Source: a virus
Lineage: Duplodnaviria; Caudoviricetes
Virus record (IMG/VR): IMGVR_UViG_3300005980_000003
Location: 1-54,156 of that record
Length of the DNA stretch: 54,156 nucleotides
Strand: one strand, 5' to 3'
Position numbers and translations under genes: made by a program
The notes under the pieces: generated by a model
Told to the model about the DNA's origin: nothing
The model's input: only the letters and a program-made list of their open reading frames with translations
Database searches by the model: none
Shown here: positions 80 to 54,156 of the stretch, piece by piece
Numbering within the stretch: position 1 is the stretch's first letter
Layout: every line of letters starts with the position of its first letter

Positions 80-94
80 CGGGATAATACGCCA
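80..94. repeat. attL core, 15-bp direct repeat CGGGATAATACGCCA
   Basis: Identical to 53988-54002; lies at the change from GC-rich host-like sequence to phage sequence. Confidence 0.88.
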
Positions 95-337
95 CTACCC
101 AATGTCAGGAAGTTGAGTGCTAAGTTGCCCAAGCCCAAATTCTCCGCTTCTATCTAGGTAACTTTGTACACCAAGTGGCACTACGCCAGTACACACATAC
201 AACAGCTCTATCCTGCACATCCCAACACTTCCGTATGAATAACAGTACACTTAAAATCGTTATTTGATACCAACTAACAAGCCTCTAGTATATGCACCAG
301 CGCGCGTACACTTGACACTTGTTTGCACTATAAAAAA

Positions 338-527
338 TGCACTCTTTAATAACATGTGGCCCACACAGGCACCCTACCTCTCCACGAAGTCCGCTCTAGC
401 TATTATTTAGGTTGGTGATAGATTTAGTCGACATACCCATCCACACTCTAAATGCATTGCACCCTTCCAACTTGTTGCAACAGGCCGGTATAAGTTCTTT
501 GAGCTACACATGTTATTAAAGAGTGCA
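338..527. repeat. Perfect 21-bp inverted repeat enclosing 148 nt; putative structured ncRNA
   Basis: TGCACTCTTTAATAACATGTG (338-358) / CACATGTTATTAAAGAGTGCA (507-527) in a non-coding region. Confidence 0.8.
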
Positions 528-904
528 CTAATTACAGGCTATGCCTGCAACCAATGCCCTCCCAATCCGCTCTATCTCTAGAACTATTGCTCTTCAAATT
601 GTTAAAGATCGTTAAACACAAACAAGTGATTGCAGGCAGTGACTCATGCTTCTGCCGTATCGGTTCCACTATGTACACCCTGCAATCTATCTTTGTATTC
701 ACTCGCAGCTAAGAGGTGCATAGTAAACTATGGCTCACAAAGCTTTGTAGCAGGCATCACACAGACGCCTATCTTTGTTGGAAGTCCTATATGCGACTTA
801 TCTGCGCAGGACTTTGTAGCTATTGGGTTGGCCTATTAAAGCTAAATCCTGACCATGATGTGCATCCTTATCCAATTAGGTGCGCCTGGCTCTTGGCCCG
901 CGCT

Positions 905-7734: not shown

Positions 7735-9624
7735 TTAGCAGAAGAAGTAGGCTTCTTTGTTGTAGATCATGTCGCTTGTCAGTTCACGACTAACCAAAGG
7801 CATGTCAATGTTCAACTGACTGCACAGATGTGCAATTGGATCATTCTCTACAAAGATGATTTCATATGCACGGCAGATCAAGGCTTTCAACTTAGGAGTA
7901 TCTTTCAAAGCTGTACGGAAACAGTCATGAATAGATACATAACCTTCGATGCCAGCATCTTTAGCCAATGCTGCTACAGTACGAGCAATAAGCGCATCAA
8001 TGCCCTGAATGTAGTTAACCATGAATGTACGAGCATATTCCTCAGCAGATGGAGCCTTGTCACTAACAGTCAAGCCAGTATTCTTCAATTGGCTACCAAA
8101 GCTGATGATAGTGTTTTGAGTGTAACGAATGCTGGTGAATGTAGCTGTAAGCTCAACCTTGCCACACACAACCAAGTCAACAATCTGACCATCAATGTGA
8201 GTGTAGACAACATTAGACTTACCATTTGCCTCCATGATTGCTGCAACCTGTTCTGCCATGTACTCTTGAAGACCAATGATCTTCTTACCAAGTACACGCT
8301 TAACAGCTTCGATAGTAATGTTGGCAGCTTCTTCACTGTCTTCAATACCAGCGTCAAACATAACCTTCATGTAATCCTTTTGTTCGGTAAGTGCTTTCTT
8401 GCCACCACCGTATTGGATAGCCATGTAGGGTGTTTTCATTGCGTTACGATCAATACCAGCCATGTCCATCTGAATGGCACAAAGTGCATACGGGTCAAAC
8501 ACCTTCTTCATAGTGAAGCCAGTAGCCTCAAGAAGTTGTTTGTTACCTGCCAAGATAGCCAGGATCTGAGTACCCGAACATTTAGCATCCAAGCCCATTG
8601 GTACACGAACATCACACTCGCCAGTCTCTTCAAAGGTAACGAAGTAACGAGCAAGGCGAACATACATGAAAGGACTATCAACACCAGCACTCTCAAGGAA
8701 TGTCTTCAATGCACGTACAGGCGACTTACCAACACGCATCAGATACTCAGTGGACATGTACTTTGGATCTTTGCCAGCAGCTTCCTCAAGCTCATTCATG
8801 AAGAATGTGTAAGCCTCGCTATCCTTGGTAACAATAGACTCAACATTCAACTTGTAGATGCTGCGGTTGTAGTCATCACCTTGTGGGTTAGTACCAGCAT
8901 GTGCAACGTGATACATACGACCACGCTTGTCAGCTTTCTGCTCACTGTAGTAGTCAACACCAGCTTCCATGTCATTGATGCCATTCATGCTACCTTTCAC
9001 ATCTTTCCAGATAGCCAGCTCTGGAGTCTGTGACTTAACAAGGTTGATGATAGTTGTCATATCCATGTCAGCGCTGAATGGTGTTGCTTCCAAGTAACGC
9101 ATTGCTTTGTCCAACAGCTTGGATGGCTTAACCTTGCCACCTTTAACCTGCGACACACGACGATTGGTATCATCGATCATAGTTGTCAGAGGCGCTGTCT
9201 TCTCACTTACATAGCAAGCATCATAGAACTTCTGACTAACATAGAACACACCACCAAGTTCTTCCATGAAGCCCATTGTTACCAAGCTTTCAAGTGCATC
9301 ATTACATTCAACCATAACACCCAAGTCACGATTGCGAGCAACCATGTAACCAAAGCACCCTTTATACTGAGTGTTAAAAGACTCAACAGTATGTACACCT
9401 TCCTCAAGCATGAACATTGTCTTGAACATAGACGCTGCTATCACTTGCTTGTTGGCGATGGTGCAGGTGCTGTACATGTCACGCAGCATGATGTCTGCAA
9501 ACAGTTGTGGGATAACGGATTCAGCGGTGAGTTGTTCGGACTTACGCATAGTGTGTTTGCTCATGTGGGTAGCGATGGTGTTAGGAGTAGTGTTGTTAGC
9601 AGTTACGTTAGTGATTGCGTTCAT
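7735..9624 (-). CDS. Single-subunit T7-superfamily RNA polymerase 1 (Chaseviridae early type)
   Basis: DKRGRMY, NPQGDD, motif A LDAKCSGTQ, motif B RNAMKTPYMAIQYGG, motif C IHDCF. Confidence 0.92.
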   Translation of the reverse strand: MNAITNVTANNTTPNTIATHMSKHTMRKSEQLTAESVIPQLFADIMLRDMYSTCTIANKQVIAASMFKTMFMLEEGVHTVESFNTQYKGCFGYMVARNRDLGVMVECNDALESLVTMGFMEELGGVFYVSQKFYDACYVSEKTAPLTTMIDDTNRRVSQVKGGKVKPSKLLDKAMRYLEATPFSADMDMTTIINLVKSQTPELAIWKDVKGSMNGINDMEAGVDYYSEQKADKRGRMYHVAHAGTNPQGDDYNRSIYKLNVESIVTKDSEAYTFFMNELEEAAGKDPKYMSTEYLMRVGKSPVRALKTFLESAGVDSPFMYVRLARYFVTFEETGECDVRVPMGLDAKCSGTQILAILAGNKQLLEATGFTMKKVFDPYALCAIQMDMAGIDRNAMKTPYMAIQYGGGKKALTEQKDYMKVMFDAGIEDSEEAANITIEAVKRVLGKKIIGLQEYMAEQVAAIMEANGKSNVVYTHIDGQIVDLVVCGKVELTATFTSIRYTQNTIISFGSQLKNTGLTVSDKAPSAEEYARTFMVNYIQGIDALIARTVAALAKDAGIEGYVSIHDCFRTALKDTPKLKALICRAYEIIFVENDPIAHLCSQLNIDMPLVSRELTSDMIYNKEAYFFC

Positions 9625-36537: not shown

Positions 36538-38322
36538 TTACAGGAAAAATCTGTCGCACTTGTGAATGATGTTCAAATCCCAATCACCCATTGCAGGTTC
36601 ATCAGGCAAATCCACCTTGTACTTGTACTCCCATTGACGCTTTAGATCTAACAGGTAGTTACCAAAGTACAACTTTACGAATTCTTCTCGGATTACTTTG
36701 TCGAGAAATGGGATGTAGTTTGCATGAACAGCAAAGCTATCGTGTACCCACACAGCAGGAAGCCCGACTTCCTTCAAACGAATAGCCACCATCCGAAGAT
36801 GTGTTGCATCTAGCGAGTGAATTACATTAGGACCAATTGCAGATTTGTGCTTTGAAAGCTTGGGGATGAATGCACCTTCTTCATCCAAGACATCCTTTTT
36901 GATAGTGATCGTGTGCTTGCGCCGCTTAATCACCACTGTAACGTCTTCTTCCTCAGTTACTCGGTAATCCTGACTGGCTACAAATCCGTCTGGAGTCTCC
37001 CATGAAACTTGGTGAACACCAGTAGCACAGATAATTGCCATGCACGCCTTCAACCAATCCACACCTGCAACGATGGGTTGTAGAACCTCGTTCGTGGTGT
37101 TGAACAATTGAGAGCCAAGCTGGCAAGCAACCTTTCTATCAAGCTCAGGATGCATGTCACAGACATTATCCATTGCCGATATGCGAGTTGCAGAATACGC
37201 AAAAGTCATTACTGGCTTCTTTGCACCCTTACGTGTAGCAATGTATTTGTATTCTTCTGGTAAGTAGTAGTCCCACTTGAAGGCCACAAACTCGTAAATA
37301 TCCATGCCGTCAGCGGACTCGCACAACTCCATCCCTAAGCGGTCTGTGATCGCACTGGACCCCATCAGGGCGCTCCAATGCTGTAGGCCGGAACATCGCC
37401 CATCCCTGGGAACGAACGCTGCCAGGGGCTGCTCAGGGGCTTTCAGGTGTTCGGCTATCAGCCTGGCATTTGCCATTCCGCAGTAGGGTTTATCCCACTG
37501 TAGCCACTCCAAATTCTCCCAATCTAGAGCCTGTGCCGCATACAGGCAGGCTTTAGCCTCAGTGTCTGCACCGTCATAGCGGGTGTCCTCTGCGTAGTCG
37601 TCAGTAGCCGCCACAAGGGCAGCCAGCCCAGCCGGTGACAGGGCTTCGCTGAAAATAGGAAGACACATTGCTTTCTCATGGTCAGCACCTTGCGGGCTAA
37701 TACCAATAGTTGTGTCTGCGTAAATCCTCCCACGACTATCCAAGAAGCAACCAAACTTGAAGCTGTTTTCATCAACAAGTTGTTCCGCACATTTCACAGC
37801 CCTGCTAGCCATGATGCTGTCATTATAAGGAGCGGTTTCTTTATACAGGTTAAGTACAAACGGATTCACACGAAACTTTGTATCAGCTATCCCACTGGTT
37901 GCTTCTAAATGTGAACACTGCTCGATGCCGTAGCGTACTTTTGCATCAGGCACGTCAAAGCCTTCCCTGACAACATGCGTTAAAATAGGCGGCAAGCCAC
38001 CCTTAACCATCATGCTAACAAGGTCGTAAGTTGGTTCAACGATCACATGTGTTTCTGTTCTACTTACACGTATGTGCTCAAGGGTAAGTAATTTTGCACC
38101 CACCATCGCCATTATAAAGCACAAGCCTATGTACGGATCAGTGTGTAGATACTGGGCGAGATAGTTACGTTTATTGTACTTACTCCCCGGATTGCACAAT
38201 GCAACATAAAGCTTGGGGATGCAGTCAACGTATACTTGTGCAGATTGGCGGTATGGTGGTGCCAGTTTTGGTATTAACCTTCTTGTGACAGAAAGTTCAA
38301 ACGATTCTTCTTGGGCCACCAA
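36538..38322 (-). CDS. Single-subunit T7-superfamily RNA polymerase 2
   Basis: LDSRGRIY, SPQGAD, motif A DGRCSGLQH, motif B RKGAKKPVMTFAY, PNVIHSLDATHL, motif C VHDSF. Confidence 0.92.
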   Translation of the reverse strand: MVAQEESFELSVTRRLIPKLAPPYRQSAQVYVDCIPKLYVALCNPGSKYNKRNYLAQYLHTDPYIGLCFIMAMVGAKLLTLEHIRVSRTETHVIVEPTYDLVSMMVKGGLPPILTHVVREGFDVPDAKVRYGIEQCSHLEATSGIADTKFRVNPFVLNLYKETAPYNDSIMASRAVKCAEQLVDENSFKFGCFLDSRGRIYADTTIGISPQGADHEKAMCLPIFSEALSPAGLAALVAATDDYAEDTRYDGADTEAKACLYAAQALDWENLEWLQWDKPYCGMANARLIAEHLKAPEQPLAAFVPRDGRCSGLQHWSALMGSSAITDRLGMELCESADGMDIYEFVAFKWDYYLPEEYKYIATRKGAKKPVMTFAYSATRISAMDNVCDMHPELDRKVACQLGSQLFNTTNEVLQPIVAGVDWLKACMAIICATGVHQVSWETPDGFVASQDYRVTEEEDVTVVIKRRKHTITIKKDVLDEEGAFIPKLSKHKSAIGPNVIHSLDATHLRMVAIRLKEVGLPAVWVHDSFAVHANYIPFLDKVIREEFVKLYFGNYLLDLKRQWEYKYKVDLPDEPAMGDWDLNIIHKCDRFFL

Positions 38323-51486: not shown

Positions 51487-51885
51487 TTAACCATCCATAT
51501 GGAAAATATGATTATCCCACTTGCCAATTACGACAATGGTTCCGTCTGCATAAAAATAAATAGCTTCGTATTCGCCACCAACATTACGACTAATCACACC
51601 AATTGCGTACACGATGTGCTTAATGCTGGAGCCAATAACCACATTAGATAATGTCGTCACCTTCTCCCATGTACCGTCCTTATCAATCTCTGATAAGAAC
51701 AAATGGTTGCGTGGATCTACGATGTTGCACACAGCTACAACTTGGTGAATAAGGCTTTTAGGGTTATTCAAATCAATGCAGCTAGGCAGTTTCCCCATTG
51801 CAATAACCATGTCTCTCAGTTCGCAATGTAGGTACTGCTTGCATGGATCAAGTTGTATACGAATACCGCTAATAGTTTTCCCCAT
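51487..51885 (-). CDS. Hypothetical protein (start MGKTI)
   Basis: GAGG RBS; downstream of terminator. Confidence 0.6.
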   Translation of the reverse strand: MGKTISGIRIQLDPCKQYLHCELRDMVIAMGKLPSCIDLNNPKSLIHQVVAVCNIVDPRNHLFLSEIDKDGTWEKVTTLSNVVIGSSIKHIVYAIGVISRNVGGEYEAIYFYADGTIVVIGKWDNHIFHMDG

Positions 51886-51906
51886 GTTCCTCACCAGTTT
51901 TGAAAC

Positions 51907-51945
51907 AAAAAAAAAAAGCCCTATCACCACGATGGCAATAGGGCT
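51907..51945 (-). terminator. Rho-independent terminator
   Basis: AGCCCTAT...ATAGGGCT stem followed by 11 T on minus strand. Confidence 0.85.
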
Positions 51946-51982
51946 GGGAGGTGCTGGGCTGCGTTGTGGGCAACCCTAGCTG

Positions 51983-52387
51983 TTACAGCAGGTCAGCGGA
52001 TGCCTCGCCTTCTTCCTGGGCTTCACCGGCTTCCTGTTCGGCACCGGCTACAGGCGCCTGAGCGGCACCTTTCAGCTTGGCAGCGCGTGCAGCCTTGGCA
52101 CTGGCCTTCTCTGCGTTCAGCTCGACTGGCTCGGTGTCCCAGGTGCTCAGGAAGGCACGGAACTCAGCAATGGCGTTAGCCCGCATGGTGCGGCCACGGC
52201 CGGTTTCGCCTTCGCTGTTCAGGAATGCTTCAACATCAGCAGGGACAACAACTACGAAGTCCAGTTTTGCTTGGTGCTTCTCCGCTTGTTCCAGGGTTTT
52301 GAATTGTTTGCCGTCTTCGGTGGTGAACACTTCAACTTGTACGGCCTGGGATTTGATCTTCGATACAACAGCTTGTGCTTCGGACAT
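51983..52387 (-). CDS. Likely highly expressed hypothetical protein
   Basis: GC-rich host-like codons, AGGAG RBS, own terminator; FTTEDGKQF motif. Confidence 0.8.
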   Translation of the reverse strand: MSEAQAVVSKIKSQAVQVEVFTTEDGKQFKTLEQAEKHQAKLDFVVVVPADVEAFLNSEGETGRGRTMRANAIAEFRAFLSTWDTEPVELNAEKASAKAARAAKLKGAAQAPVAGAEQEAGEAQEEGEASADLL

Positions 52388-52474
52388 AATTTGTTTCTCC
52401 TAGGATGTTTAGTTACTCGCATGATTGCAAGAAATCTAAGTTGGCATATCTGCCAGTGTTTGAGGTCGGGTTTA

Positions 52475-53182
52475 CTAACGGCCCAACGCTACATTTAACA
52501 ACTCTCTTTTAAAACCAGTTGCAAACTTTTTAGCAGCTTGTGTGTTTGTCAGAATGCCGATAACGATTAGCTCGATGTCGTCTTCTTTAACTGCACACAA
52601 CCCACTTGACTTTCCATACCTGATAACAGCATGCATCCGTCCATCCCATAGATACCTGCTGTTATAGTTGCGTTCTTTGTATTGCGTTCCCACAATCGCT
52701 TTGCGAATAAGATCATTGCGCTCTTGCGACGACAACTTTGGTTGTTCCAAGTACCTCATAGCAAAATCTAAAATACGACCAAGGTCCGTCAAGAGAATGT
52801 TTACACGCCTCGACTCACAGTGACTAATCAGATTCCTTACGACTTCCTCTTTGTAGCACCCAAAATCATTACCAAGCTTTACCGCATTACGATGGAAGTT
52901 AAAGTACTGTGGTTGAATCACAGTTGGGGAGTTAACACCAGCAATGTAGGATCGGTTTAATTCAAGCGCCGCGATCCTGACAGCATTGTCGTCACAAATC
53001 TTCATCAGACCAAAAGGAATTAAAGTGGCTTTGAAAATGTTGACGGCTTCCTTCATGGTCCACACTACCCAAGCTTCATTTTCCCAAAAAACAATTTGGT
53101 TCTCTTTAGCTAGCAAGGCAATGTCATGTTTCTCCATCCACGTCTTAATCAGTTCAACAACTACTTCTTGATCATTTGTCAT
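52475..53182 (-). CDS. Hypothetical protein (~235 aa, start MTNDQ)
   Basis: Long ORF coupled by ATGA to the upstream gene; no recombinase motifs seen. Confidence 0.7.
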   Translation of the reverse strand: MTNDQEVVVELIKTWMEKHDIALLAKENQIVFWENEAWVVWTMKEAVNIFKATLIPFGLMKICDDNAVRIAALELNRSYIAGVNSPTVIQPQYFNFHRNAVKLGNDFGCYKEEVVRNLISHCESRRVNILLTDLGRILDFAMRYLEQPKLSSQERNDLIRKAIVGTQYKERNYNSRYLWDGRMHAVIRYGKSSGLCAVKEDDIELIVIGILTNTQAAKKFATGFKRELLNVALGR

Positions 53183-53394
53183 GGCCTGTTGCATACCTTT
53201 GTCAGTTTCTCTACAAGCCAAACAAACAAGGCGCATGTCCAAGCCAATGGCCAAATTACCCCCAAGAGTATGAATAGTACGATGGGGCCTTCTTCAACTG
53301 GCCCAGTCTTCTTCTCTATCTTGACCGACAATACAAAGGTGTAAATGCCACACACCAAGTACAACAAACAAACTGCAACTGATAGTGAAAACAT
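53179..53394 (-). CDS. Two-TM membrane protein
   Basis: AGGAGG RBS; two hydrophobic helices, WP motif. Confidence 0.7.
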   Translation of the reverse strand: MFSLSVAVCLLYLVCGIYTFVLSVKIEKKTGPVEEGPIVLFILLGVIWPLAWTCALFVWLVEKLTKVCNRP

Positions 53395-53411
53395 TTAACC
53401 TCCTTACTTAA

Positions 53412-53518
53412 TGGGTGCAGATGGTCGGTGTGTCTTTTCGTTGGAGTCCCAAATGTTCTTCCGCCTCGACCAAGCCGTTATGTTCAACCAGGTTCCAGGC
53501 GCTCGTTTTCATCTGCAT
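53412..53518 (-). ncRNA. Putative structured RNA unit C
   Basis: Terminal stem TGCAGATG/CATCTGCA; 3' end ...GCACCCA. Confidence 0.45.
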
Positions 53519-53522
53519 AAGA

Positions 53523-53640
53523 GGTGCAAAACCATTCACCAGCTCTCCACCCTGTCTTTCACCAAGGCTGGCTGCCGCCGCTACTTGTGCTACTAGATTG
53601 GATCAGGATTGCTTTTACCTAAGGTTGAATGGTTCTGCAT
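53523..53640 (-). ncRNA. Putative structured RNA unit B
   Basis: 14-bp terminal stem TGCAGAACCATTCA/TGAATGGTTTTGCA (one G-U on minus strand); 3' end ...GCACC. Confidence 0.5.
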
Positions 53641-53646
53641 AAAAGA

Positions 53647-53737
53647 TGGTGCCCTTGGGAGTCGAACCCAACCACACAGCTATGCGCTGGTCATAAGAAG
53701 CCCACTCAGGGTTATCGTATCTATCAGGAGTTGCACC
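53647..53737 (-). tRNA. tRNA-like element (non-canonical or pseudo-tRNA), unit A
   Basis: Perfect T-arm TTGGG-TTCGACT-CCCAA then GGGCACCA; 5' GGTGC pairs with 3' GCACC; no clear D or anticodon arm. Confidence 0.55.
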
Positions 53738-53912
53738 CGACATTCTTACTCAGTGTGGTTAACCTCTACAGGCACCGAAACAGTATGTACAAAAGGCATA
53801 CGTAGTACGATACGAAAAGCCTGAAATTAGCTTATGCAAATTCCATTCCTTTGTGTGCAATCAAATTGCGTGCAACAGATATTGCATCTTATGTCTTGGT
53901 TTATGTGCTTTG

Positions 53913-53925
53913 TAAGTCATTGATT
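53913..53925 (-). promoter_or_regulatory. IHF consensus site in the attP arm
   Basis: AATCAATGACTTA matches WATCAANNNNTTR; ~62 bp from att core. Confidence 0.55.
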
Positions 53926-53987
53926 ATAAAGGCTGTACACTTCGAAGTTGCCTTAAGTCCATAAAAGCCCTCAAGCCCTTCCTCATG

Positions 53988-54002
53988 CGGGATAATACGC
54001 CA
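53988..54002. repeat. attR core, 15-bp direct repeat CGGGATAATACGCCA
   Basis: Identical to 80-94. Confidence 0.88.
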
Positions 54003-54102
54003 ATATCCCATCTGTTAGATCATGATTTTTAACCGAAGCTTATTGATGATATAGTACGTATATACATACCATGTACCACAGTACTAAATCGACGGAGACC
54101 TC

Positions 54103-54156
54103 ATGGCTCGTGGCGGCATAAACAAAGCAGTCGTTCAGACGGCACGCCTGGCGATC
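54103..54156 (+). CDS. tnpT: 5' end of host TnpT-like (KfrA_N DNA-binding) cointegrate resolution protein T, truncated by window edge
   Basis: GGAG RBS; MARGGINKAVVQTARLAI resembles the recalled N-terminus of Pseudomonas TnpT-family proteins; GC-rich. Confidence 0.75.
   Translation, partial: MARGGINKAVVQTARLAI

Follow-up and report, generated by a model that had tools for sequence, protein, structure and literature searches.

Tandem tRNA-derived and 4.5S-like hairpin modules in the early leader of an integrated Chaseviridae-like phage

Phage tRNA islands often hold tRNA-like and other stable RNAs of unknown role, and RNAC and RNAD of phage T4, though known for decades, have been given no function so far. 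T4 has the layout closest to the one described here: a tRNA-Arg, RNAD (species 2, 119 nt) and RNAC (species 1, 139 nt) lie in tandem with spacers of 1 and 6 nt, and the available text of two accounts gives the roles of RNAC and RNAD as unknown (PMC3014915, PMC9697503). Here we describe an array of three tandem structured units on the minus strand, at approximately 53412-53776, of the IMG/VR virus record IMGVR_UViG_3300005980_000003, whose whole 54,156 nt (rated complete by CheckV) are called the window below. An earlier note on this DNA had pointed to three such units, and they were borne out, though unit A has other bounds. The array is real and non-random, and it consists of one tRNA-derived module (ext-A) and two 4.5S-like hairpin modules (B and C) in an early leader. 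As a new variant it falls into a class that is known but so far without explanation, the stable RNAs of phage tRNA islands.

The comparison with T4 was made by layout. T4 RNAC carries a tRNA T-arm (CCGGGTTCGAATCCCGG), as ext-A does, and T4 RNAD ends with GCACC, as does module B. However, the order of the units in T4 is different. RNAC and RNAD are classed as late RNAs within a real cluster of eight tRNAs, whereas the window array lies in an early leader with no functional tRNA. Moreover, cassette swapping of the kind found in the window lineage was not seen described for T4.

The P4 CI and P1/P7 C4 RNAs are cut from phage leader transcripts. Like pre-4.5S RNA and M3 RNA, they resemble the hairpin modules of the window in having paired ends followed by ACC(C) and a U before G(+1), and module B (116 nt) is close in size to 4.5S RNA (114 nt). 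The window modules differ in that they matched no signal recognition particle or C4 family of Rfam, and no antisense target was found for them in 54002-52400. In the available text of PMC5499578, 4.5S RNA, phi80 M3 RNA, P4 CI RNA and P1/P7 C4 RNA are named as hairpin-type substrates of RNase P. The features of bacterial RNase P recognition, as far as the available text of PMC11143913 gives them, are a G(+1)/C+72 pair, a preferred U-1 and a 3' RCC(A) that pairs with the GGU of the P15 loop. The E. coli ffs gene (pre-4.5S RNA), as read from the genome, has CAAU/GGGGGC...GCCCCC-ACCC-AUUU (the slash stands before G(+1)), which is the frame of module C and of B', a module of the relative L002 described below.

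Modules B and C were found to share their start (TATGCAG) and their end (...TGCACC), in agreement with the earlier note. The frame TATGCAG-N85-115-TGCACC matched twice in the 54-kb window, and the two matches were B and C themselves (0.12 matches expected by chance; two matches in 1 of 100 shuffles). Module B begins with GCAGAACCATTCA and closes with TGAATGGTTTTGC followed by ACC, with a closing stem of 14 bp, and module C begins with GCAGATG and closes with CATCTGC (an 8-bp helix) followed by ACCC. Compared with dinucleotide shuffles, B showed a minimum free energy (MFE) of -43.7 kcal/mol and a z of -3.68, and C a z of -3.14; none of the 200 shuffles was as good in either case. An internal GAAA(A)GACA, which may be due to chance, occurs in both modules.

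In L002, a contig of a 96-98% identical relative, B, C and the first early open reading frame (ORF) are replaced by unrelated sequence, which opens with the 64-nt module B' (UAU/GUAGGA, two hairpins, then UCCUAC-ACCC; z -3.50). Two more hairpins (GTCAGAG...CTCTGAC and GTTGAG...CTCAAC) follow B' at 2506-2590 of L002, and a different first gene comes after them. A further unit, of 107 nt, was found in contigs of the public runs X5 and X2; it starts with AU/GCGG and ends with CUGC-ACCC. The corresponding ends are UAU/GCAG...UUGC-ACC in B, UAU/GCAG...CUGC-ACCC in C and UAU/GUAG...CUAC-ACCC in B'. In the order B, C and B', the closing helix has C-G, C-G and U-A at position 2, A-U, A-U and G-C at position 5, and A-U, U-A and A-U at position 6, and compensatory C-G and G-C pairs occur at position 7. 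Across B, C, B' and the X5 unit, the helix is kept through two-sided changes at positions 2, 5, 6 and 7, whereas G(+1), U(-1) and the ACC tail are invariant. The features of a 4.5S-like hairpin substrate, namely paired ends, a 3' unpaired RCC, G(+1) and the preferred U(-1), are present in B, C and B', and the 3' tails of the three modules fit the RCCA rule of bacterial RNase P as set out in the available text of PMC11143913 and PMC5499578. Of the maturation by tRNA-processing enzymes that had been proposed earlier, it is the anatomy (U(-1)/G(+1), helix and ACC(C), as in pre-4.5S RNA) that was found.

To the 5' side of the hairpin modules lies ext-A. The earlier note had placed unit A at 53737-53646 (92 nt), but this segment had a z of -0.20, with 78 of 200 shuffles as good, and its supposed 5' end GGTGC, which L002 has as GATGC, is paired at no more than 5 of 7 positions. 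The true start is 39 nt upstream, at 53776, where GGTGCCT (53776-53770) pairs 7/7 with GGGCACC (53654-53648) as the acceptor (0.01 expected by chance). The discriminator A is at 53647 and the 3' end reads acceptor-A-UCU; the (A)CC(A)-like tail earlier ascribed to all three units is not present in A. Between the acceptor and helix P2 there is a 10-nt single strand, a remnant of the D-region. The T-arm sequence GGTTCGACTCC is the sole GGTTCRANTCC match in the window (0.17 expected by chance), which agrees with the claim of a T-arm in A only.

Ext-A has no D-arm and no anticodon arm with a 7-nt loop. ARAGORN called no gene at default, nor with the intron option at the default score, and Rfam (RF00005 included) gave nothing at the gathering score or at E<=10 in 53000-54156. 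Relaxed ARAGORN thresholds yielded only overlapping, mutually inconsistent calls here and an unconvincing 'tmRNA' call elsewhere. Ext-A was rejected as a canonical tRNA: the T-arm and acceptor are in place, but there is no cloverleaf call and no D- or anticodon arm. A degenerate-pattern search found phage tRNA-Lys(UUU) and tRNA-Phe with almost the same T-arm and acceptor 3' strand, which is consistent with descent of ext-A from such a phage tRNA. Compared with L002, all 13 differences in ext-A (9 substitutions and 4 indels) fall within the approximately 74-nt interior and none within the 56-nt tRNA-like frame, although 0/56 is weak support, for the approximately 4% divergence of the leader would give none in about 1 of 10 cases. 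The sole anticodon-like hairpin with a 7-nt loop in ext-A is lost through a 9-nt deletion in L002. For the decoy of anticodon nucleases suggested earlier there is no evidence either way, no module keeping an anticodon-like stem with a 7-nt loop.

The tRNA-like domain of transfer-messenger RNA (tmRNA) resembles ext-A in its acceptor, a short single-stranded D-loop analogue, a helix leading into the T-arm and an insert in place of the anticodon arm. A tmRNA was nevertheless rejected: neither ARAGORN nor Rfam called one at default, 3:70 is U-A and not G-U, and there is no conserved tag frame. The Y-RNA-like scaffold of the earlier note did not stand either. The bacterial Y RNA YrlA is encoded at most about 4 kb from a same-strand gene for Ro60/Rsr (TROVE), according to the available text of PMC4201824. 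In the window, a six-frame search found no TROVE/Ro60 (PF05731) match, the control search being positive in D. radiodurans; the YrlA motif GNCGAAN0-1G is absent from 51800-54156, and no Rfam family matched at E<=10. Of the Y-RNA stem-loops, the T-like one occurs in ext-A alone and the D-like one is missing. The ext-A interior was also considered as a guide to the attachment (att) site on a loose likeness to the att core only, and this was rejected because that interior segment is deleted in L002, whose core is unchanged. A pairing of the leader (53809-53824) with the ext-A interior (53706-53721; 16 nt, 88% complementary) was set aside as it is not kept in L002.

Elements with a similar outline were observed in other records. 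In L030, an unrelated provirus with no primase relative in the record, an 86-nt element (approximately 330-422) is outlined like ext-A, with a perfect 7-bp acceptor (GGTGCCC/GGGCACC) followed by ATTCTGGA, by a 6-bp helix that encloses a 32-nt insert and by a T-arm. In the IMG/VR contigs L021, L024 and L032 (approximately 250-422), a tRNA-like 5' half (GGTGCTCTGGCAG...) is split by an insert from a 3' half (T-arm and GGGCACCA). ARAGORN called a complete tRNA-Leu inside the insert in L021 and L032 and none in L024, where tRNA-like sequence is visible; the outer split tRNA-like gene was not called in any of the three.

The variation of the locus was monitored over 52900-54156 in contigs of four public runs (X2-X5); joints were read at 80% likeness, and missing cover over 53446-53571 was counted only where a contig bridged the gap. 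The flanks are kept in all four runs at approximately 95% identity, and the locus is bridged by 554, 388 or 107 nt of other content. X3, with 554 letters, is L002-like. X4 has 388 letters and retains just 35 nt (T-arm, acceptor 3' strand and spacer). X5 and X2 have 107 letters and no ext-A, and their unit has a 34-nt piece in common with B; in X5 the 3' end of module C (CTGCACCC) is kept as well, with homology up to 53420. The recurrent breakpoints (53777/8, 53638-40 and 53409-20) are module boundaries, and the pattern of L002 is alike. Homology breaks exactly at the start of ext-A (53777/53778) in three variants, and homology with three variants ends at 53638-53640, at the spacer between ext-A and B. 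Furthermore, the modules and the first gene vary independently in the run contigs. The modules behave like cassettes that can be swapped between near-identical phages. Since they are swapped between near-identical flanks, they would be accessory genes rather than essential cis signals, and no module is essential, as one variant has a single module and no ext-A.

In wider searches, blastn against a phage collection gave no match. The exact 20-mer of the T-arm and acceptor had no match in genome contigs, and in metagenome contigs it matched an identical copy (L007) and, by chance, a GC-rich gene (L008). A 29-mer of the leader matched only the contig of L002 among viral contigs. The neighbouring 240-aa protein had one relative in viral contigs, none in genome contigs and no usable Protein Atlas match, and a primase search gave three loci, of which only L004 has the array.

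The array is the first item downstream of attR and the conserved leader of approximately 210 nt (Table 1), and lies 225 nt from attP. It had been described as next to attR, and the att core is indeed present at both ends of the phage, with attP and an empty attB both seen: the 53.5-kb contig of L002 joins both phage arms across the core, and a run contig joins both outer flanks across it; loose ends of attP occur in run contigs as well as the empty attB, the breakpoints being 53988 and 54002. The core does not belong to a tRNA gene, and the array is part of the early-operon leader, not of the attachment site. The leader is approximately 96% identical to that of L002, has contig cover in all four public runs, and holds a perfect TATAAT at 53923-53928, read by eye. 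The GGAGG ribosome-binding site of the first early ORF begins 10 nt past module C. The spacers are short, as the earlier note had it, though one of them exceeds the 4-6 nt claimed. ORFs within the modules were judged to be chance: the ATG of a 42-aa ORF spanning unit A is AAG in L002, the ATGCAG starts of B and C open ORFs of 15 and 36 codons without a ribosome-binding site, and B' gives ATG-TAG.

Table 1. Coordinates of the array, its parts and the features around it (window positions unless a contig is named)
Feature	Position	Strand	Description
Ext-A	53776-53647	minus	130-nt tRNA-derived element
Ext-A helix P2	53753-53759 with 53671-53677	minus	6-7 bp, leads straight into T-arm
Ext-A variable interior	53678-53752	minus	~75-nt insert; length range 66-75 nt
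Ext-A T-arm	53655-53671	minus	TTGGG-TTCGACT-CCCAA; 5-bp stem; has the GTTCRANYC loop motif
Spacer ext-A/B	53639-53646	minus	8 nt, U-rich, TCTTTTAT
Module B	53638-53523	minus	116-nt rod-like hairpin
Spacer B/C	53517-53522	minus	6 nt, TCTTAT
Module C	53516-53413	minus	104 nt; two internal hairpins predicted
Leader/promoter region	53777-53987	minus	untranslated, conserved; between att core and first module
First early ORF	53179-53394	minus	71 aa, hydrophobic, no family match
Att core, attR side	53988-54002		15 bp, TGGCGTATTATCCCG on minus strand
Att core, attL side	80-94		15-bp direct repeat of attR-side core
GTAGGCRCTACAACGRGCT motif sites	L009 985-1030; L014 2570-2625; L013 2325-2370; L017; L018; L019

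Since the module frame matches the hairpin requirements of bacterial RNase P, we infer cuts 5' of 53776, 53638 and 53516. We speculated that the modules are accessory small RNAs, co-transcribed and then set free by RNase P, a reading that we favour tentatively and to which we give somewhat less than even weight. The array would be transcribed together with the early genes as an untranslated leader, and host RNase P would cut 5' of each G(+1), with the helix and the pairing of ACC with GGU in the P15 loop as its guides. Exonucleases would then trim the U-rich trailers of 6-8 nt, and three stable RNAs of approximately 100-130 nt would be set free, with module C either among them or left on the early mRNA as a 5' stem. 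Because the modules swap as cassettes among near-identical phages, a role in trans is proposed, which may lie in immunity, in counter-defence or in taking over the host.

Should the modules act in trans, Chaseviridae, a family whose promoters and early regulation await description, would have a modular RNA accessory locus; should they be no more than processing stems, the array would be tidy, ordinary phage leader anatomy. The matter is tractable, as the shared frame is explicit and open to mutation and the natural swaps are ready-made isogenic comparisons.

The locus was also compared in the Chaseviridae of Aeromonas, whose primase is only approximately 50-54% identical to that of the window phage. 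Their syntenic locus, upstream of the first early gene, holds stem-closed units in all seven phages and also a tRNA in six of them, and like the window array it is mixed and hypervariable: only 27-49% of the pAh6-C locus is shared with relatives. Unlike the window, it has a bona fide tRNA-Thr, and its units have GGGTTA...TAACCC termini without an ACC tail. The pAh6-C locus consists of an odd tRNA-Pro, a good tRNA-Thr, a unit with a 19-bp closing stem and a unit with a 22-bp closing stem, the last enclosing a marginal tRNA (29.3 bits; cut-off 29). In the other six, the plan is a conserved upstream motif, a tRNA or none, stem-closed units, TCCCATCAACGCAA and the first gene. The units start with (G)GTTA and end with TAAC(CC), their inner stems differ between phages, and in two of the seven (pAh6-C and ZPAH140) a unit encloses a tRNA-Glu-like body. 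The uninterrupted closing stem next to TCCCATCAACGCAA is 9 bp in ZPAH140, 14 bp in ZPAH14, 18 bp in LA93P2 and 22 bp in pAh6-C; these four were found by script (at least 9 contiguous pairs), and an 8-bp GGGTTATG/CATAACCC stem was seen by eye in the other three. Across the family, the locus is a hot spot for RNA elements of the tRNA type and of the stem-closed type. The U/G...ACC frame is particular to the lineage of the window. The leader of L005, an IMG/VR relative at a greater distance, is free of such units, and a tRNA-Arg lies upstream of the primase there; in VPs20, none were found in the 6 kb examined.

Ahead of the tRNA locus, six of the seven Aeromonas phages have the motif GTAGGCRCTACAACGRGCT, with a hairpin and CTACAA after it. 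In LA93P2 two of its positions are changed, and none was seen in the stretch of ZPAH140 that was read. The ICTV profile describes the phage RNA polymerase promoter of Chaseviridae as unidentified (PMC12842549), and the GTAGGCRCTACAACGRGCT motif is a candidate for it.

Several observations weigh against release of the modules by RNase P. A consensus sigma-70 scan found no full promoter in the region. Ext-A has no encoded CC(A) after the discriminator, and its MFE is unexceptional (z -1.78). The covariation comes from three to four non-homologous modules, full sequences of the lineage being two (window/L007 and L002). The run contigs report presence, not abundance, transcription or RNA ends, and the one RNA library among the runs may hold DNA. 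One variant, as noted, holds a single 107-nt module and no ext-A. Scans for exact complements and with duplexfold against 54002-52400 gave no antisense target above shuffles: the longest complementary run outside the modules is 8 nt, shuffled modules commonly giving 8-10 nt, and duplexfold energies lie within approximately 1.6 standard deviations of shuffles. For the regulators suggested earlier, complementarity to the surrounding transcript did not go beyond shuffles. Finally, the stem-closed units of the Aeromonas phages lack the ACC frame, so the RNase P reading may hold for the window lineage only, and their long perfect stems fit RNase III better.

The latter point leads to the alternative that survives best, doubtful as we consider it: the hairpins would be cis-acting leader structures that serve the early mRNA either in RNase III-type processing or as 5' stabilisers, in the manner of the T7 early region. 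They would then not be genes for RNAs that act in trans, and the presence of a tRNA-like piece would be incidental. The position of the array directly upstream of the ribosome-binding site of the first early gene is as expected for such structures, and so is the adjacency of the Aeromonas stem-closed unit to the conserved TCCCATCAACGCAA that precedes the first gene. Module B, a long rod with a 14-bp perfect stem, would suit RNase III, but the closing stems of C and B' are just 7-8 bp and the conserved U/G...ACC(C) frame is not characteristic of RNase III. In keeping with a T7-like leader, the replication and RNA polymerase genes of the phage are T7-like; the T-arm module is nevertheless left unexplained, and wholesale swapping at flanks of approximately 95% identity is unusual for a purely structural element.

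The release of small RNAs by RNase P can also be carried further, to the effect that the early leader is a cassette site to which each cassette brings its own RNase P frame, is exchanged at the frame boundaries and encodes a trans-acting RNA of its own, for anti-defence or superinfection immunity. We regard this extension as rather doubtful. If true, it would make the locus an RNA counterpart of the protein anti-defence islands at early-operon starts, and would suggest a function for the T4 RNAC/RNAD class.

The modules could instead, though this is unlikely, be decaying remnants of a phage tRNA island (pseudo-tRNAs and spacer debris), functionless and tolerated at a non-essential locus. This would explain why ARAGORN and Rfam found no tRNA while relatives have real tRNAs at the same locus, why the ext-A interior has accumulated 9 substitutions and 4 indels against so close a relative, and why one variant does without ext-A. 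Debris of this kind is unlikely, however, to fold far beyond shuffles as B, C and B' do, or to keep one frame with compensatory changes in the helix; the unchanged tRNA-like frame of ext-A argues weakly in the same direction.

Immunity RNAs of the P4 CI or P1/P7 C4 type, which would be antisense RNAs cut by RNase P from the leader of their own operon so that swaps change immunity, are quite unlikely. Such RNAs would suit an integrated phage in which no repressor or integrase was recognised, and modules that are hypervariable hairpins set in a leader. Both CI and C4 are cut by RNase P (available text of PMC5499578), and P4-like prophages use antisense-RNA regulation with seqA and CI RNA, as the available text of PMC3632133 has it. 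The modules, however, have no complementary stretch longer than 8 nt to 54002-52400, with duplexfold energies within shuffles; they matched no Rfam family at E<=10 in 53000-54156, whichever C4-type models were included, and they vary independently of the first gene.

DNA-level elements, that is, hairpin-ended mobile cassettes or recombination or replication signals, are very improbable: the breakpoints at module boundaries, the closing stems that resemble terminal inverted repeats and the distance of 225 nt from attP would fit them, but target-site duplications are lacking, the three boundaries do not share a core, the inverted repeats have only 4 nt in common between modules, six-frame searches found no transposase or recombinase, and an unpaired ACC tail and a T-arm are sensible only in RNA. 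Three further candidates were rejected. Integron attC sites have the consensus RYYYAAC/GTTRRRY, and the module termini misfit its required order. A retron msr-msd was dismissed as a reverse transcriptase (PF00078) is absent from the six frames of the window, with a positive control in E. coli. A CsrA/RsmA sponge would suit the ACAGGAC loop of B', but B and C are unremarkable in their number of GGA.

The phage that carries the array is a Chaseviridae-like myovirus, seen as an integrated copy. Its genes are almost all on the minus strand and include those for T7-like replication proteins and for a virion with a contractile tail, as well as ORFs of single-subunit RNA polymerase. Its primase/helicase shares 50-54% identity with the enzymes of such Chaseviridae as Aeromonas phage pAh6-C, Vibrio phage VPs20 and Shewanella phage Spp001. 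The ICTV profile describes Chaseviridae as lytic (PMC12842549), whereas the window phage is site-specifically integrated. Six-frame searches of the window found no tyrosine integrase, serine recombinase, IS110-type or rve transposase, PHROGs and Pfam scans likewise found none, and no repressor was recognised in these scans. The attB core has inverted arms (GGGATAAT/ATATCCC) with the look of a tyrosine-recombinase site. The integration recombinase may act in trans.

The right flank (54003-54156 and L007 1-163) encodes a KfrA_N DNA-binding protein, and the DNA of its gene has 74-80% identity to genes of Pseudomonas plasmids that are labelled 'DNA-binding protein'. Since it resembles these plasmid genes, the integration site may lie on a plasmid or integrative element of a Pseudomonas-like host. 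At the other end of the window, 95-1190 is a non-coding region of approximately 1.1 kb, approximately 95% conserved in L002, which is directly upstream of the leader in the free phage. Within it, at 325-540 (minus strand), a 31-bp inverted repeat closes a 210-nt element (z -4.63), which may be a further stem-closed module. Two separate ORFs on the minus strand, 7735-9624 and 36538-38322, both match single-subunit RNA polymerase (PHROG 414, Pfam RNA_pol).

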